A DNA stretch of 17,916 bases from a virus (taxonomy: Duplodnaviria > Heunggongvirae > Uroviricota > Caudoviricetes). Shown here piece after piece: positions 7,748-17,916 of the stretch; within the stretch, counting starts at the first letter, position 1; each line of letters starts with the position of its first letter. A program made the translations under genes and the position numbers. The notes beneath the pieces were generated by a model that saw only the letters and a list, made by a program, of their open reading frames with translations, was not told the origin of the DNA and did not search any database. The stretch is from IMG/VR virus record IMGVR_UViG_2690316248_000008; one strand, 5' to 3'.

Positions 7748-8194
7748 CTAAGATTCTGTCGTTGTCTCTAATGAACACCAAGCATTAATTCCCATTTTTG
7801 AGACAGCTATCAACATAATTACTACAGCTGGAGCAATAAATGTTGCTGTTGCCCCCAAAGAACCCGCAATTGCCGAAGAGATCACCCCTACAAAGTATGT
7901 TTTAACATCACCAGTCAGTGCTCCTAAACATTCCCTCTCCTCTGCATATTTATCACCTCCACATACAAAAGCCTTAAACTCTAATTTAAACTGCTCAACA
8001 AACGCTTTTCTTCCCGGCATTTTTGAATTATCACCGCCAAATTGAGCAACTGAACTTGGGCCAGATGCAGTTAGCCATAGCTCAAGAGCCTTTTCTTCAT
8101 CGCCATTTTCGAGAAAATTCCTGACAGATGAAGATTGATACGTTTTTAAAGTGGACAACCAAGACTCAGCATCTTCATTTGGTATAGCAATCAT
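7748..8194 (-). CDS. Hypothetical protein with soluble N-terminal domain and C-terminal membrane anchor; partner of the upstream protease
   Basis: 148 aa. The C-terminal hydrophobic stretch YFVGVISSAIAGSLGATATFIAPAVVIMLIAVSKMGI is about 35 residues, enough for one long helix or a TM hairpin. ATG overlaps the protease stop (ATGA at 8191-8194). AT-rich codon usage, unlike the phage core. Confidence 0.6.
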   Translation of the reverse strand: MIAIPNEDAESWLSTLKTYQSSSVRNFLENGDEEKALELWLTASGPSSVAQFGGDNSKMPGRKAFVEQFKLEFKAFVCGGDKYAEERECLGALTGDVKTYFVGVISSAIAGSLGATATFIAPAVVIMLIAVSKMGINAWCSLETTTES

Positions 8195-8838
8195 AACATA
8201 TCCTTAACATATTCTGCAGAAACCGCATAAGTTGTCTGATGTAGTTCAGCTGGATTAATACCTCCAACCAAAACAGAACCTCCAGAATTATTTGCATAAG
8301 CGCCAACCAAGACGCCTATTACCGAGTCATTTTTTAAATTAAATACAATCGATCCCGATTGACCAGGTCTGGTTTGGATATTTATAACGGCATGTTTAGA
8401 TTGAATATTACTGCTTGAAAGTAAAACTTTTGCACCTATTTTTGCCGTTTGAAATGTCAATACTTTTCTATTTTCATTACAATGTGGGAAACCTAAAATA
8501 CCCACATCTTCACCGACATTAACATCGTCAAGAGTAGCAATTTTTAGGCAAGGTTCATAAACAGGTGCATTTTTAATTTTTAACACACATAAGTCTTTTA
8601 TTGGATCTTCATCAATAACATCAACTCCAATACATTGAAATTTATCAACACTTGTATCCTGATAACTATTAAAGTTATTTATATTAGATGGAGAAATAAC
8701 TAAGTTAGAAGAAAACCCATTAATAACATGGCGGGAAGTAATTATTTTATCCTTAGAAATAAAAAAACCTGTTCCTAAAAAACTAACCAAACCTGCATTA
8801 AGCACGCCAACAACTACGACATATTCAGGACCAATCAT
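8191..8838 (-). CDS. Trypsin-fold (chymotrypsin-like, S1/Trypsin_2-type) serine protease
   Basis: Catalytic triad motifs in canonical order: GTGFFISKDKIITSRHVI (His), DLCVLKI (Asp), PGQSGSIVF (Ser). Start set at the ATG at 8838 with GGAG about 5-8 nt upstream. The ORF-track extension to 8976 would run across the cos-like sequence. Confidence 0.75.
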   Translation of the reverse strand: MIGPEYVVVVGVLNAGLVSFLGTGFFISKDKIITSRHVINGFSSNLVISPSNINNFNSYQDTSVDKFQCIGVDVIDEDPIKDLCVLKIKNAPVYEPCLKIATLDDVNVGEDVGILGFPHCNENRKVLTFQTAKIGAKVLLSSSNIQSKHAVINIQTRPGQSGSIVFNLKNDSVIGVLVGAYANNSGGSVLVGGINPAELHQTTYAVSAEYVKDML

Positions 8839-10111: not shown

Positions 10112-10300
10112 TCAGCTGATGACATCCATTGAGCGGTTGTATTCGTGGGTTCTGATTTTTGCCATGAGTTCATCTGTCAGTTCAGAAACCCACTGCAAAG
10201 CCAGCCCCTTCTCTTCATCACTACACTCACTAGCCGCTACAAGCTTAAGAAAAAAATCAATGCGCTGGAGCTTCAAAGACTCCAAAAAATAGTCCTGCAT
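10112..10300 (-). CDS. Small SOS-regulated protein, possible Tum-like antirepressor N-terminal part
   Basis: 62 aa from the ATG at 10300, with AGGAGG 4 nt upstream. It is the first gene downstream of the LexA box and 10 bp upstream of the DinI-like gene. Confidence 0.5.
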   Translation of the reverse strand: MQDYFLESLKLQRIDFFLKLVAASECSDEEKGLALQWVSELTDELMAKIRTHEYNRSMDVIS

Positions 10301-10341: not shown

Positions 10342-10361
10342 CACTGTTTATATTTACAGTA
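10342..10361. promoter_or_regulatory. LexA operator (SOS box) in the promoter of the small-protein/DinI-like operon
   Basis: CACTGTTTATATTTACAGTA is a perfect CTGT-N8-ACAG palindrome with an AT-rich core. Candidate -35 TTTACA and -10 TATACT on the minus strand overlap it. Confidence 0.7.
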
Positions 10362-15551: not shown

Positions 15552-15773
15552 CTAATTAAGGTTTAGATTGCATTCTGAAAGCGCATCAACGGTCATTGCT
15601 GCTATGTTGATCATCACTTTTTCGCGTTTTTTATCTTTGCGCAGACGGTGACGGATAAGGCGTCCATCAGCCAACATGTCATTGATGGTATCGATGGATA
15701 GCCCTGTCAGCTCGCTATAGCGTTCAATAGTCACATGAGGCGTGGTAAGAGTGATTGAAATGTTAGGTCTCAT
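15552..15773 (-). CDS. Apl/Cox-like small HTH regulator (excision/lytic-switch protein)
   Basis: 73 aa; first gene of the minus-strand early operon, divergent from CI. HTH-like segment [29 protein letters not shown] upstream. Confidence 0.6.
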
Positions 15774-15898
15774 GATGCAACATTCCTCGTTTAATGATGA
15801 TTAATCAGGACGAATACGGATCGTTTGTATTTTGTGAACACCATAAACATACGATCGCACGGCGAAATCGTCAAGATAAAAGTTCACTTGGAGTGACC
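15774..15898. promoter_or_regulatory. Immunity switch region between apl/cox-like and cI (lytic and lysogenic promoters, operators)
   Basis: 125-bp divergent intergenic region. Candidate lytic promoter on the minus strand: -35 TTGACG (15869-15874), 17-bp spacer, -10 TATGTT (15846-15851). Inverted GTGAAC/GTTCAC motifs at about 15832 and 15882. Confidence 0.5.
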
Positions 15899-16468
15899 AT
15901 GAATTTGGAGAAAGGCGGACGAGGCGCCATAGAGCGCATGGTAGAAGCTTATGGATTCAAGACTCGACAGGCGTTGTGCGATCATTTAGGAATCTCTAAA
16001 AGTACACTCGCCACACGCTACATGCGTGACTCATTCCCAGCAGAATGGGTAATCCAGTGCGCCCTTGAAACGGGCACCTCGCTTAATTGGCTCACAACCG
16101 GACATGGTTCAAAGCAAACTTCAGGTAATACAAATACTATGGAAGTTGCTAAATATGTATTATCTGATGGTGCCTTGCGTGAAGACGGTTTTTATATTTT
16201 TGATAAGGGATTTCTACCCTCTACGTTTAAAAAACCTTTTGTCATCACAGATAACAATTCTGAATTTATTTGTGATAAAGAATTTGATGACATACGTGAT
16301 GGTAAATGGGTAATAAGTATTGATGGCGAAGTAACGATCCGTGACATTACTCGTTTACCCGGTGGAAGAATCTTCGTCGAGGGTGGAAACAGAGCCTTCG
16401 AATGTAAGATAGAAGACATTGAAATAATTGGTAAAATTATAAGTTTAACAGTTAAATATGTTAGATAA
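15899..16468 (+). CDS. cI: CI immunity repressor (phage 186 CI-like)
   Basis: 189 aa from the ATG at 15899 (GGAG 6 nt upstream). IERMVEAYGF...STLATRYMRD...QCALETGTSLNWLTTGHG parallels the 186 CI N-terminal domain as I recall it. Confidence 0.8.
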   Translation: MNLEKGGRGAIERMVEAYGFKTRQALCDHLGISKSTLATRYMRDSFPAEWVIQCALETGTSLNWLTTGHGSKQTSGNTNTMEVAKYVLSDGALREDGFYIFDKGFLPSTFKKPFVITDNNSEFICDKEFDDIRDGKWVISIDGEVTIRDITRLPGGRIFVEGGNRAFECKIEDIEIIGKIISLTVKYVR

Positions 16469-16483
16469 TACCGGGAGGAAACT

Positions 16484-16675
16484 ATGCTTGGTAAAGTATT
16501 TTTTGTGGTTTTATCATGCTCTTTGTTATTAAGCCCACTAACTACCTATGCTAAAAATTATCCTTGTTCTGGGAAAAAGGGAGGTGTCTCTCACTGTACC
16601 TCCGATGGAAAATTTGTTTGCAATGATGGAACTATTAGTAAATCCAAAAAAATCTGTACTAAAAACTCACGATAA
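16484..16675 (+). CDS. Small secreted cysteine-rich protein (moron between cI and int)
   Basis: 63 aa with signal peptide [23 protein letters not shown]. The mature part of about 40 aa has four Cys. Strong RBS GGGAGG 15 bp after the cI stop, so it is probably co-transcribed with cI. Confidence 0.55.
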
Positions 16676-16810
16676 CTTTTGCTTTTATATCTGCGTCTAA
16701 AATAAAAATGAGCCGCAGGTTAACCGCAAAAGTTACATGCTCACATAGCAAAAAGAATAGCCAACTTCATTATGGCTTCAGTGAGATGTATGGTCGTAGG
16801 ATTTCATACA

Positions 16811-16839
16811 TTGACACTGGTTATACATACAGTAAAAAT
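16811..16839 (+). promoter_or_regulatory. Candidate int-proximal promoter with embedded LexA-like dyad
   Basis: Perfect -35 TTGACA (16811-16816), 17-bp spacer, -10 AAAAAT (16834-16839). The spacer holds CTGG-TTATACAT-ACAG (16817-16832), which fits CTG-N10-CAG with one mismatch to CTGT. Confidence 0.35.
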
Positions 16840-16863
16840 GCTCTCTACTGGAGGGCATTTTTT

Positions 16864-17916
16864 ATGGCAGTACGAAAACTCACCACTGGGAAATGGCTTT
16901 GCGAATGTTACCCCGCCGGACGAAGTGGGCGTCGTGTGCGTAAACAATTCGCCACCAAAGGCGAAGCACTGGCTTTTGAGCGCCACACGATGGAAGAAAC
17001 CGAAGCAAAGCCCTGGCTGGGTGAATCAGTGGATCGTCGAACACTGAAAGACGTGGTTGAGCTATGGTTCAAACTACATGGTAAATCTCTGACAGCTGGG
17101 CAGCATGTCTATGACAAATTGCTGTTGATGGTTGACGCTCTGGGCAATCCTCTTGCAACCGATCTCACCTCTAAAATGTTTGCCCATTATCGAGATAAAC
17201 GCCTGACAGGCGAGATCTACTTCAGCGAGAAATGGAAGAAAGGAGCAAGCCCGGTCACCATTAACCTGGAGCAAAGCTATCTAAGTAGTGTTTTTAGCGA
17301 ACTATCCCGTCTGGGCGAATGGTCGTATCCGAACCCACTGGAGAACATGCGAAAATTCACCATCGCAGAAAAAGAGATGGCATGGCTTACCCATGAGCAG
17401 ATTGTTGAATTGCTGGCTGATTGCAAACGTCAGGACCCAATTCTGGCACTGGTAGTTAAGATATGCTTAAGCACAGGCGCACGCTGGCGTGAAGCCGTAA
17501 ATCTTACCCGCTCACAGGTGACCAAATACCGAATTACCTTTGTCAGAACGAAGGGGAAGAAAAACAGAAGCATCCCTATCAGTAAAGAGCTTTACGAAGA
17601 GATCATGGCGCTTGATGGGTTCAATTTCTTCACAGACTGCTATTTTCAATTTTTATCCGTGATGGAAAAAACGTCTATCGTGCTCCCTCGCGGTCAACTC
17701 ACACACGTTCTGCGCCATACGTTTGCGGCGCACTTCATGATGTCGGGTGGAAACATTCTGGCCTTACAAAAAATTCTCGGACACCACGATATAAAAATGA
17801 CTATGCGTTACGCACATCTGGCACCGGATCATCTGGAAACGGCGCTCCGTTTCAATCCTCTGGCAACGCTGCCAAGTGGCGACAAAGTGGCGGCAGCAGT
17901 TGGCATTACCCCGTAA
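16864..17916 (+). CDS. int: Tyrosine integrase (P2/186 Int family)
   Basis: 350 aa from the ATG at 16864 (GGAGGG upstream). MAVRKLTTGKW...RRVRKQFATKGEALAFE at the N-terminus and C-terminal CLSTGARWREA, HVLRHTFA, MRYAHLAP (catalytic Tyr region) closely parallel P2 Int as I recall it. The 16708 start in the ORF track is an upstream in-frame extension. Confidence 0.9.
   Translation: MAVRKLTTGKWLCECYPAGRSGRRVRKQFATKGEALAFERHTMEETEAKPWLGESVDRRTLKDVVELWFKLHGKSLTAGQHVYDKLLLMVDALGNPLATDLTSKMFAHYRDKRLTGEIYFSEKWKKGASPVTINLEQSYLSSVFSELSRLGEWSYPNPLENMRKFTIAEKEMAWLTHEQIVELLADCKRQDPILALVVKICLSTGARWREAVNLTRSQVTKYRITFVRTKGKKNRSIPISKELYEEIMALDGFNFFTDCYFQFLSVMEKTSIVLPRGQLTHVLRHTFAAHFMMSGGNILALQKILGHHDIKMTMRYAHLAPDHLETALRFNPLATLPSGDKVAAAVGITP

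Follow-up and report, generated by a model that had tools for sequence, protein, structure and literature searches.

Between the genes for the immunity repressor CI and the integrase of a 186-like E. coli prophage lies a short open reading frame, ORF63, and the question is what such a small gene does behind cI. The window (the whole stretch of DNA analysed, 17,916 nucleotides) derives from this prophage. In phage 186 itself cI and int overlap, and pL-cI-int-orf69 is annotated as one lysogenic operon, while in the window the interval between cI and int is a variable cargo slot. The features of the region are collected in Table 1.

Table 1. Features of the cI-int region; positions refer to the window.
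Feature	Position	Strand	Description and basis
Candidate lysogenic promoter pL	15755-15783	+	TTGAAA (15755-15760), 17-nt spacer, CAACAT (15778-15783)
Candidate lytic promoter pR	15846-15874	-	TTGACG-17-TATGTT; promoter scan; faces pL
cI, immunity repressor	15899-16468	+	186 type, 189 aa; Pfam, RefSeq
Shine-Dalgarno sequence of ORF63	16473-16478	+	GGGAGG, 5 nt 5' of the ATG; read from sequence
ORF63	16484-16675	+	63 aa, AT-rich (34% GC)
Predicted signal peptide of ORF63, aa 1-23	16484-16552	+	Hydropathy; SPase I cleavage predicted after Ala23
Mature YdcA-family peptide (40 aa) and stop codon	16553-16675	+	NF007463, PF27300, invariant motif, AlphaFold2
Long imperfect stem-loop directly after the ORF63 stop	16674-16734	+	RNA fold; without a U-tract on the + strand
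Stem-loop ATGTATG...CATACAT	16786-16811	+	Marks the start of conserved int-proximal sequence
Promoter-like element just 5' of int	16811-16839	+	TTGACA-17-AAAAAT; promoter scan, 10/12 matches
Intrinsic-terminator-like hairpin and U6	16834-16863	+	dG -14.1 kcal/mol, z -5.8; ends at the int ATG
int, tyrosine integrase	16864-17916	+	350 aa; Pfam Int_N, Phage_integrase; the window stops at its stop codon

ORF63 is confirmed as a genuine gene. The cI stop codon TAA (16466-16468) and the ATG at 16484 are on the same strand and leave a gap of 15 nt. This tight spacing is retained in close alleles, and the Shine-Dalgarno sequence is kept as (C/T)GGGAGGAAA in 47 of the 50 alleles examined. The placement 15 bp past cI with a strong ribosome-binding site, given in a preliminary description of this DNA, is thus borne out by the stop and start coordinates and by the GGGAGG. 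The E. coli alleles diverge at no more than 13 of 192 nucleotides, and their amino acid differences are confined to the signal peptide or to K24. The core from P27 to C58 (32 codons) displays up to seven synonymous and no non-synonymous changes among these alleles. For the mature peptide dN is about 0 at a dS of up to 0.45, and for distant homologues dS is saturated while dN is 0.08-0.2; the 40 mature residues are under strong purifying selection. A length of only 63 amino acids and a GC content of 34% might suggest that the frame is open merely by chance and that the cI-int spacer is non-coding. The probability of this is negligible, since substitutions that are exclusively synonymous in the core indicate a coding sequence, the matches to curated HMMs exceed their cut-off, and the homologues form 449 clusters at 50% identity and 614 at 90% identity. 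Selection and family membership together rule out the non-coding spacer that had been allowed for in the preliminary description.

The protein is a prophage-borne member of the known, widespread and uncharacterised YdcA family (PF27300). NCBIfam model NF007463 matches it with 115.3 bits (cut-off 93) and covers residues 5-63 of 63, phrog_6000 matches with an E-value of 9e-34, the Pfam family PF27300 'YdcA' is assigned in precomputed records of the identical cluster, and RefSeq names the product 'YdcA family protein'. The Pfam-A release used for the scan predates PF27300 and could therefore not return YdcA; its sole match to ORF63 was a meaningless sub-threshold one (GULLO2-like, E 0.068). Literature searches on WP_000900884, WP_000900883, PF27300 and PRK10040 found no papers.

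Residues 1-23 show the n-h-c layout of the Sec/SPase I type, with K4, a hydrophobic core (9-residue Kyte-Doolittle mean up to 2.7) and then T-Y-A. Across the family, alanine is conserved at position -1 to 90% or more while the remaining signal segment varies freely, and the conserved cleavage context reads xxA before and (K/R/A)N after the cut. The mature part contains nine K/R against two D/E, giving a pI of about 9.6 and a net charge of about +7. Its four cysteines, C28, C38, C46 and C58, are all invariant across the family and presumably form two disulfides in the periplasm. A fifth cysteine, C12, lies inside the signal peptide and is not conserved. A lipoprotein of the Cor/Llp type, processed at VLSC12, was considered and rejected, as this cysteine falls midway along the hydrophobic core and other family members do not keep it. 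The invariant pattern of the family is P-C-S..K-G-G...C...F-C..G..S.S-K..C. In the alignments A1, A2 and A5 the residues P27, C28, S29, K32, G33, G34 and C38, and further F44, C46, G49, S52, S54, K55 and C58, are invariant or nearly so. ORF63 contains the motif PCSGxKGG ... F[VI]CxDG[ST]xSxSKKxC with the four invariant cysteines, and its AlphaFold2 model has a pLDDT of 84-92 over the domain. Export of ORF63 and oxidation of its cysteines would be in keeping with these features, and the preliminary description of a small, cysteine-rich, secreted protein was correct as far as length (63 aa), cysteine content and the predicted Sec-type signal peptide are concerned. DUF3761 has a similar motif, but kinship with it by circular permutation was rejected, as no Pfam family matched a version of the sequence that had been permuted and duplicated in silico.

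The preliminary description had missed not only the family but also that E. coli has a core chromosomal paralogue and that a terminator-like hairpin separates ORF63 from int. Chromosomal ydcA is found in 5416 of 5426 E. coli genomes. The K-12 protein (57 aa; PF27300 / PRK10040), described as predicted periplasmic, and ORF63 belong to one family and are about 70% identical in their mature regions. Both have a signal peptide followed by PCSGxKGG[IV]SHC...GKFVCNDG[ST]IS.SKK.C with the four invariant cysteines. However, the K-12 gene is a monocistronic core gene beside hokB, cybB and rydC, whereas ORF63 is phage cargo behind cI, and ORF63 fits the equivalog NF007463 and not NF007462 (67.6 bits, cut-off 118). 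For the whole family a single phenotype has been published: E. coli W with ydcA deleted is sensitive to 300 mM 3-hydroxypropionate, and ydcA has also been reported to be acid-induced under YdcI (PMC7642389). These data point to envelope physiology rather than phage defence. It is thus conceivable, if somewhat unlikely, that ORF63 confers a phage-unrelated lysogenic conversion, the prophage copy adding to or replacing the host YdcA in acid or organic-acid tolerance or in outer-membrane or periplasmic homeostasis. The core status of ydcA and the housekeeping neighbourhoods in which other members are found agree with such a role. So does the extreme conservation of the mature peptide in Alpha-, Beta- and Gammaproteobacteria alike, which suggests that a partner in the cell is conserved as well. 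On the other hand, the host already carries ydcA, so an added physiological benefit is not evident.

The gene preceding ORF63 is a 186-type repressor gene (Pfam Phage_CI_repr, E 2.7e-33, and Phage_CI_C, E 5.2e-29; 'phage repressor protein CI' in RefSeq). We infer the candidate pL solely from its position when aligned to the pL annotated in phage 186 (TTGCGA-17-CATGAT); its score in the promoter scan is sub-threshold. Its -35 element lies inside the apl/cox-like gene and the candidate pR lies between cI and the apl-like gene, both as in phage 186. On the + strand no terminator-like site was found from cI to ORF63, which agrees with the absence of an obvious terminator noticed earlier, and the promoter scan gave no promoter-like site on this strand in 15900-16484. 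Co-transcription with cI, as proposed in the preliminary description, is well supported by anatomy and comparison: the two genes are on the same strand with a short gap that lacks promoter and terminator signals and is kept in alleles, the corresponding genes overlap in Haemophilus phage HP2, and the cI-cargo-int layout corresponds to that of the lysogenic operons mapped for 186 and K139. As ORF63 has no promoter of its own and would be carried on the lysogenic cI mRNA, the protein would be made continuously in lysogens.

About 190 nt following ORF63 form a highly structured RNA (fold of 16660-16880, z -5.9). The stem-loop directly after the stop codon is restricted to prophages with ORF63 as the only cargo, and nothing similar to the 110-nt spacer that follows ORF63 was found in the other loci compared. 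The reverse complement of this stem-loop scores as terminator-like. The second stem-loop is present in all cargo variants, with variable loops, and similarity to Klebsiella phage int modules begins there. The spacer and -10 element of the promoter-like sequence make up a LexA-box-like CACTGGTTATACATACAGTA (16815-16834; CTG-N10-CAG search). Every int-linked locus keeps this element, which in one of them (L156) contains a perfect CTGT-N8-ACAG. It is also found 5' of int in Yersinia prophages and may act as an SOS-inducible int promoter. A literature search for a LexA-regulated int promoter found nothing relevant.

The hairpin that ends at the int start codon is absent from the output of the terminator scan. 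Its 3' arm contains the Shine-Dalgarno sequence of int, GGAGG (16850-16854). Three sequence versions exist. Two hairpin versions differ in loop length and misalign, making a MAFFT/RNAalifold consensus uninformative; folded separately, all three form the hairpin with a dG of -12 to -16, and compensatory changes from C:G to U:A and from U:A to A:U are seen between them. It is probable that this hairpin constitutes the 3' end or an attenuator of the cI-ORF63 transcript.

A census of 77 IMG/VR loci with an int at least 99% identical shows 12 or more alternative gene contents of the cI-int interval, with all cargo on the same strand as cI. The commonest occupant is ydcA, found after cI in 45 loci, five of which also have the PDC-S20 KAP NTPase. 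PD-Lambda-1 (E 3e-120) is present in 11 loci and Old (E 9e-235) in three, and other loci contain PDC-S20, PDC-M18A, PDC-M11A or an OLD/AriA-like ATPase. The cI-int slot is a defence-gene hotspot. PADLOC gave no match for ORF63 but matched its alternatives PD-Lambda-1, Old, PDC-S20, PDC-M18A and PDC-M11A; as hotspots also hold non-defence cargo, location alone is weak evidence for a defence function. Of 5426 complete E. coli genomes, 632 (about 12%) have the prophage ydcA, among them BL21-type laboratory strains; the locus of BL21(DE3)-type strains is 95.5% identical. According to RefSeq, attB lies beside rcdA/ybjJ. Two E. coli records seemed to suggest carriage on a plasmid (H63 and H64), but both contain rcdA and ybjJ; they thus represent the same chromosomal prophage region and give no evidence of plasmid carriage.

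The order cI-ydcA-int is also found in Yersinia prophages, though their CI is just 34-38% and their integrase 48% identical. In HP2 an unannotated ydcA has an ATG that overlaps the cI stop codon, and the gene after it encodes a secreted OB-fold (tRNA_anti-like) protein; the annotation of the Haemophilus phages HP2 and S2, where the ydcA frame is missing, is hereby corrected. Further phage types carry ydcA in cargo slots beside HicAB or SocA modules. Altogether at least four types of temperate phages have repeatedly taken up ydcA in slots whose other occupants are defence or toxin-antitoxin modules. Such repeated capture is more typical of genes engaged in conflicts between mobile genetic elements and speaks against a purely physiological contribution to the envelope. 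In Moraxella and Acinetobacter phages ydcA is part of a tail-gene module that is transcribed late. This would fit a gene without any role in the lysogen, either a recently captured and tolerated host gene or one used in lytic growth only, e.g., for envelope remodelling at lysis or injection. For ORF63 this is quite improbable given the strong selection on the mature peptide within the prophage lineage, the place right after cI that is kept across very divergent immunity modules and in HP2, and the frequency of the gene both in the slot and in complete E. coli genomes.

The reading preferred here, to which we assign a probability of about 0.4, is that ORF63 is a 'moron' carried as cargo on the lysogenic mRNA, and that its product is a periplasmic binding module protecting the lysogen in the manner of superinfection exclusion. 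ORF63 would be translated from the cI mRNA begun at pL and, during establishment, at the CII-activated promoter, and this mRNA would most likely end or be attenuated at the hairpin and U-tract before int. The protein would be made with a Sec signal peptide, cleaved after Ala23 and oxidised to a strongly basic knot of 40 residues, for which a mass of about 4261 Da is expected if two disulfides are formed. The product would then act as a small binding module in the envelope, with either a polyanion (DNA in transit) or an outer-membrane-proximal component as its partner, and the lysogen would be shielded from incoming foreign DNA or phage. As E. coli already has a core ydcA, an exclusion role would need either a diverged sequence or extra dosage. 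The preliminary description had put the gene forward as a candidate for lysogenic conversion or superinfection exclusion. The candidacy is supported by location only, through the defence hotspot and through Glo in the same slot of Vibrio cholerae phage K139; a role in exclusion or defence would be plausible.

Information on what the domain may bind comes from its relatives. Behind a signal peptide, the YdcA domain is found fused to Endonuclease_NS (P0170, P0173, P0192), to SNase (P0092) and to a PLD/Nuc-type domain (P0166), i.e., to three unrelated secreted nuclease folds in five of the 30 longer members scanned. A fusion to an HNH motif is weakly linked. In a search with a 137-sequence domain profile, the best 120 of 614 matches were all single-domain. 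[quoted passage not shown] Each of the two Dis2 lobes has the motif C-x-K-x-G-G-[IV]-x-x-C...G-x-x-V-C-N-[DN]-G, which resembles that of ORF63. The comparison of ORF63 with the lobes (PDB 7MUC/7MUD chain AN) gives modest statistics, with a phmmer E-value of 2.2e-4 and a Foldseek probability of 0.91-0.95 at 38-39% identity. Dis2 is small, disulfide-pinned and periplasmic, and is found near the outer membrane in the Dot/Icm outer-membrane cap (PMC8486379). No structural homologues are reported in the papers describing it (PMC8486379; PMC12716638). Dis2 is built of two lobes with five disulfides, whereas a single lobe with two predicted disulfides is seen in ORF63, whose neighbours are phage genes only, with no T4SS genes nearby.

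The nuclease fusions and the strong positive charge raise the possibility of a periplasmic or extracellular DNA-handling factor, in which the knot binds DNA and modulates uptake, conjugation or extracellular DNA. Such a factor could block natural transformation or protect and retain DNA, and would not be specific for phage exclusion. Phage-borne copies occur in the naturally competent genera Haemophilus, Moraxella and Acinetobacter, the OB-fold gene is next to ydcA in HP2, periplasmic nucleases encoded by mobile genetic elements are known to block transformation (PMC12378983), and some sources name the cluster 'conjugal transfer protein'. This last name is, however, an automatic label, and natural transformation does not take place in E. 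coli under usual conditions. Furthermore, the sole solved relative, Dis2, contacts the lipoproteins DotK, DotC and DotD, not DNA (PMC12716638), and the fusions are equally compatible with anchoring in the envelope. A DNA-handling role of this kind is judged to be decidedly unlikely for ORF63.

A wider proposal covering the whole family, bolder and on present judgement unlikely, would be that YdcA mini-proteins form an unrecognised class of Sec-exported, disulfide-stapled, cationic periplasmic modules that bind DNA, an envelope polyanion or a conduit. Temperate phages of several unrelated types would use them, expressed in the lysogen from cargo slots, to halt incoming DNA in the periplasm, and the same module would have been recruited N-terminally into secreted nucleases and duplicated into Dis2. 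YdcA is a core E. coli protein, and the links to the slot, to nucleases and to a T4SS provide the first concrete hypotheses for the family. If ORF63 does act in the periplasm on DNA or phage that enters, a mostly cytoplasmic defence repertoire would gain a very small mechanism located in the envelope; if not, the hotspot would be flagged as carrying envelope-physiology genes as well.

Accessory genes that are expressed in the lysogen with or next to the immunity repressor include rexAB of lambda, sieB of P22 and sim of P1, and the Sim protein is processed by signal peptidase. All of these are unrelated to ORF63 in sequence, size and, where known, mechanism. The slot has counterparts among the anti-phage hotspots of P2-like phages (Old, Tin, Fun; PMC9122126; PMC13586616), which likewise are short variable loci between conserved genes with a high turnover. 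Rousset et al. (2022; PMC9122126) described hotspots between cI and int in K139-like phages of Vibrio, and a 2026 survey (PMC13586616) a minor hotspot 'between integrase and primase' in P2-like prophages. The classical hotspot of E. coli P2 is situated between gpA and gpQ, where a PDC-M35 pair is found in the window. A parallel to the preferred reading, a periplasmic module protecting the lysogen, is Glo of K139, which is periplasmic and implicated in phage exclusion (Nesper et al., 1999, as cited in PMC4870250). Glo has 137 aa, the exclusion phenotype is on record for Glo only, and homology to ORF63 was rejected (BLASTP E 0.17 over 30 residues), so that any likeness in action would be an analogy. 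In layout the two agree: K139 has the order PL-cI-orf2-glo-int with a mapped lysogenic start site according to the record annotation, so that the lysogenic transcript from PL in this P2-related phage includes, between cI and int, the gene for a secreted or periplasmic protein, and ORF63 is likewise located between cI and int, on the cI strand and without a promoter of its own.

By its sequence, ORF63, the gene between cI and int, is a prophage-borne member of the known, uncharacterised YdcA family. The protein scores 115 bits against NCBIfam NF007463 (PRK10040.1-2; cut-off 93) and matches PHROG 6000 with an E-value of 9e-34. Pfam PF27300 (YdcA) is recorded, as a precomputed match, on its homologues, and recent PGAP annotations name the identical protein 'YdcA family protein'. 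UniRef labels the identical protein 'Conjugal transfer protein'; a basis for that name was not found in the window or among the plasmid hits. The family comprises 449 clusters at 50% identity (614 at 90%) from Alpha-, Beta-, and Gammaproteobacteria. The signal peptides diverge freely across the family, and the mature motif PCSGxKGG[IV]SHC...GKF[VI]CNDG[ST]xSxSKKxC is almost invariant, all four cysteines included.

In the E. coli prophage lineage twelve nucleotide alleles of ORF63 are found, differing from the window at no more than 13 of 192 nucleotides and changing only residues S17, T20, and K24. Within the 32-codon core, synonymous differences number at most seven and non-synonymous ones are absent (dS 0.45, dN 0); towards distant homologues the synonymous sites are saturated, with dN at 0.08-0.2. 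ORF63 is a genuine gene: the synonymous-only substitution pattern excludes a non-coding spacer, the outcome that the preliminary description had named as fatal to its proposal. A chance reading frame is likewise refuted, its probability being next to nil. That description had been accurate on the size of the product, the short gap after cI, the signal peptide, the four cysteines of the mature part, and the lack of a terminator between cI and ORF63. The predicted signal peptide has the typical n-h-c layout, and the identity and anatomy of ORF63 as given here are very probably right. The window covers the right-hand portion of an E. coli prophage of P2/186-like type. Many ExPEC and APEC chromosomes are 100% identical to the window over the stretch tested, and in these rcdA and ybjJ adjoin the prophage.

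Features of the prophage referred to in the text (window coordinates)
Feature	Position	Strand	Description
cI	15899-16468	+	Pfam Phage_CI_repr and Phage_CI_C; stop codon at 16466-16468
ORF63	16484-16675	+	63-aa product; ATG at 16484, gap to cI 15 nt; GGGAGG 5 nt 5' of ATG
Mature peptide of ORF63	16553-16672		Four Cys
Long imperfect hairpin	16674-16734		Adjoins the ORF63 stop; confined to the 'ORF63 only' arrangement
Stem-loop ATGTATG...CATACAT	16786-16811		Cargo/int junction; in all variants
Promoter-like TTGACA-17-AAAAAT	16811-16839		In the int-proximal conserved block, directly upstream of int; -10 at 16834-16839
LexA-box-like CACTGGTTATACATACAGTA	16815-16834		Spacer and -10 of the promoter-like element
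Pre-int hairpin	16834-16863		13 bp, then U6; terminator-like
int	16864-17916	+	
apl/cox-like gene, cII (CP76 family), fil, replication genes		-	
LexA box CACTGTTTATATTTACAGTA	10342-10361		Strong; upstream of the 62-aa ORF and of the DinI-like and tum-position genes
62-aa ORF	10112-10300	-	Downstream of the LexA box CACTGTTTATATTTACAGTA
S1-family peptidase (215 aa) and 148-aa protein	7748-8838	-	Classical P2 gpQ-gpA hotspot; candidate defence pair (PADLOC) PDC-M35A (E 4.5e-94) and PDC-M35B (E 4.3e-58)

The annotated lysogenic operon of phage 186 has the order pL-cI-int-orf69-terminator, and the start of int overlaps the stop of cI. Compared with this, the window prophage has 395 bp inserted between the two genes. 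A pL-like element, TTGAAA-17-CAACAT, is found at the position homologous to pL of phage 186 and is faced by a pR-like promoter. A scan of the plus strand of the cI-ORF63 interval gave no promoter-like and no terminator-like site. The 188 nt 3' of ORF63 fold far better than shuffled sequences (z -5.9), and their last 30 nt form the pre-int hairpin, which stops precisely at the int ATG, with the int Shine-Dalgarno sequence placed in its 3' arm. This hairpin was missing from the output of the terminator scan of the window; its anatomy resembles that of an intrinsic terminator. Three sequence versions of it exist among the int-linked loci (IMG/VR loci with an int at least 99% identical), and all fold (dG -12 to -16 kcal/mol, z -4.2 to -5.8), with compensatory pair changes included. 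The simplest reading would be a bicistronic cI-ORF63 lysogenic mRNA that is ended or attenuated before int. This reading, together with the hairpin, strengthens the earlier proposal that ORF63 is co-transcribed with cI: its anatomical side stands, with the short gap, the uninterrupted junction, and the terminator-like hairpin before int, and the transcript, a prediction from that anatomy, is likely.

The LexA-like box upstream of int is kept in all 77 int-linked loci analysed whatever their cargo, and in one of them, L156, the match is perfect (CTGT-N8-ACAG). The corresponding position in Yersinia P2-like prophages, which have a different int, reads TACTGTTTTTATATACAGTA; the site upstream of int was also noted at loci L010, L011, and L025. 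The window has a single further box of this kind (CACTGTTTATATTTACAGTA), the counterpart to be expected of phage 186's SOS-controlled tum promoter. At the usual spacing from the -10, a transcript of the pre-int element would start in the left arm of the hairpin, and would therefore escape the hairpin and free the int Shine-Dalgarno sequence. This arrangement suggests that int expression is SOS-inducible and kept apart from the lysogenic transcript; a shallow literature search did not find an SOS/LexA-regulated int promoter of this kind described.

Eighty int-linked loci were fetched, and 77 could be analysed for what lies between cI and int. ORF63 is the commonest occupant of this slot, directly following cI alleles of 72-100% identity in 45 loci, five of which also encode a KAP NTPase of 443-446 aa (PADLOC PDC-S20). 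PD-Lambda-1 (E 3e-120) occupies 11 loci and is also found in phage vB_EcoM-813R9, Old (E 9e-235) occupies three, and the remaining 18 contain PDC-S20, PDC-M18A, PDC-M11A, an OLD/AriA-like ATPase or unrecognised sets. All cargo genes are on the cI strand. Because its contents are varied, same-stranded and include defence genes, the slot is a defence-type hotspot within the lysogenic operon. In two loci (L100 and L106) the slot opens, about 2.6 kb upstream of int, with a 307-aa protein in which two consecutive CI-type N-terminal HTH regions and a CI C-terminal domain were seen by eye, and which is followed by a PDC-S20 KAP NTPase; this suggests duplication or fusion of a repressor-like gene.

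The ORF63 region is present in 632 of 5426 complete E. coli genomes, including C41(DE3) and NEBExpress, B-strain derivatives with a deleted version of the prophage. In C41(DE3) (NZ_CP010585 869623-877908) the deleted prophage of BL21-type B strains keeps cI, a YdcA-family gene of 95.5% nucleotide identity, and int, with a retron St85-family effector gene in the vicinity. Expression could be tested in public transcriptome and ribosome-profiling data of B strains, which keep these three genes.

The mature peptide is very basic (nine K/R against two D/E, pI about 9.6) and is modelled by AlphaFold2 as a small β-hairpin knot (pLDDT 84-92). Thirty longer members of the family were scanned for domain fusions. 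A signal peptide and a YdcA domain precede Endonuclease_NS in three metagenomic proteins (P0170, P0173, and P0192), SNase in P0092, and a PLD/Nuc-type domain in P0166; P0195 has YdcA with a sub-threshold HNH motif. Other longer members have tandem YdcA repeats, a VasL C-terminal region or DUF4124, and some carry a C.C...C.GPRGG.YC (PBCV_basic_adap-like) tail. An N-terminal YdcA domain common to three unrelated secreted nuclease folds argues that the module binds either the substrate (nucleic acid or another polyanion) or an envelope anchor.

The explanation we favour, with a probability of about 0.4, is that ORF63 would encode a YdcA-family periplasmic mini-protein, carried as hotspot cargo and expressed on the lysogenic transcript of cI, and that this protein most likely works at the envelope to counter incoming phage or DNA. 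The exclusion role suggested in the preliminary description is, on its own, rather less likely than not. A role in DNA handling or in blocking transformation, which overlaps the favoured explanation, accords with the nuclease fusions and with the natural competence of some host genera, and is rather improbable. The main rival, a benefit to envelope physiology, is unlikely, if less so. It draws on the core chromosomal paralogue of E. coli and on the sole published phenotype, the 3-hydroxypropionate sensitivity of a ydcA mutant, with acid induction also reported (PMC7642389). Plain chromosomal ydcA (57 aa, beside hokB and cybB) is found in 5416 of the 5426 genomes, and a lysogen thus has two paralogues. 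The copies in Atlantibacter and Moraxellaceae chromosomes lie among housekeeping genes.

Yersinia prophages have the order cI-ydcA-int with cI 34-38% and int 48% identical to those of the window, while ydcA lies about 400 bp after cI in Buttiauxella and after int in Atlantibacter. In Moraxella and Acinetobacter siphophages it is found between the tail-tube region and the tape measure, beside HicAB or SocA modules, and in a Citrobacter lambdoid prophage in a nin-like region beside HicAB and DinI. The synteny with cI, together with the selection on the coding sequence, disfavours a functionless passenger, which is quite improbable.

The YdcA domain is probably linked to Dis2 (Lpg0823) of the Legionella Dot/Icm T4SS. 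A phmmer search of PDB sequences with the mature peptide matched Dis2 (E 2.2e-4), both lobes of which can be aligned with it (CCSKMGGINYCDSSAGRLVCNNGFYS and GGVYPQLNSSGLVVCNDGYVS), and the top Foldseek match is the same chain (PDB 7MUC/7MUD chain AN; probability 0.91-0.95, 38-39% identity). Dis2 has been described with two similar lobes and five disulfides that pin them, a place beside the outer membrane, and contacts to DotK, DotC, and DotD; it was published without a structural homologue, as Legionella-specific or with none outside Legionellales (PMC8486379; PMC12716638). This probable link is new, as are the nuclease fusions.

A cI-int hotspot of this type is already known from Vibrio K139-like phages (PMC9122126); ORF63 as the dominant cargo of the slot described here is new. 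The map of K139 is PL-cI-orf2-glo-int, and its annotation gives Glo as periplasmic and involved in the exclusion of phages; Glo and ORF63 are not homologous. Also new is the cI-ydcA linkage kept across genera, which extends to Haemophilus phages HP2 and S2. These have an unannotated 60-aa YdcA homologue whose ATG overlaps the cI stop (TAATG), followed by orf1(S), encoding a secreted tRNA_anti-like OB-fold protein, and then int.
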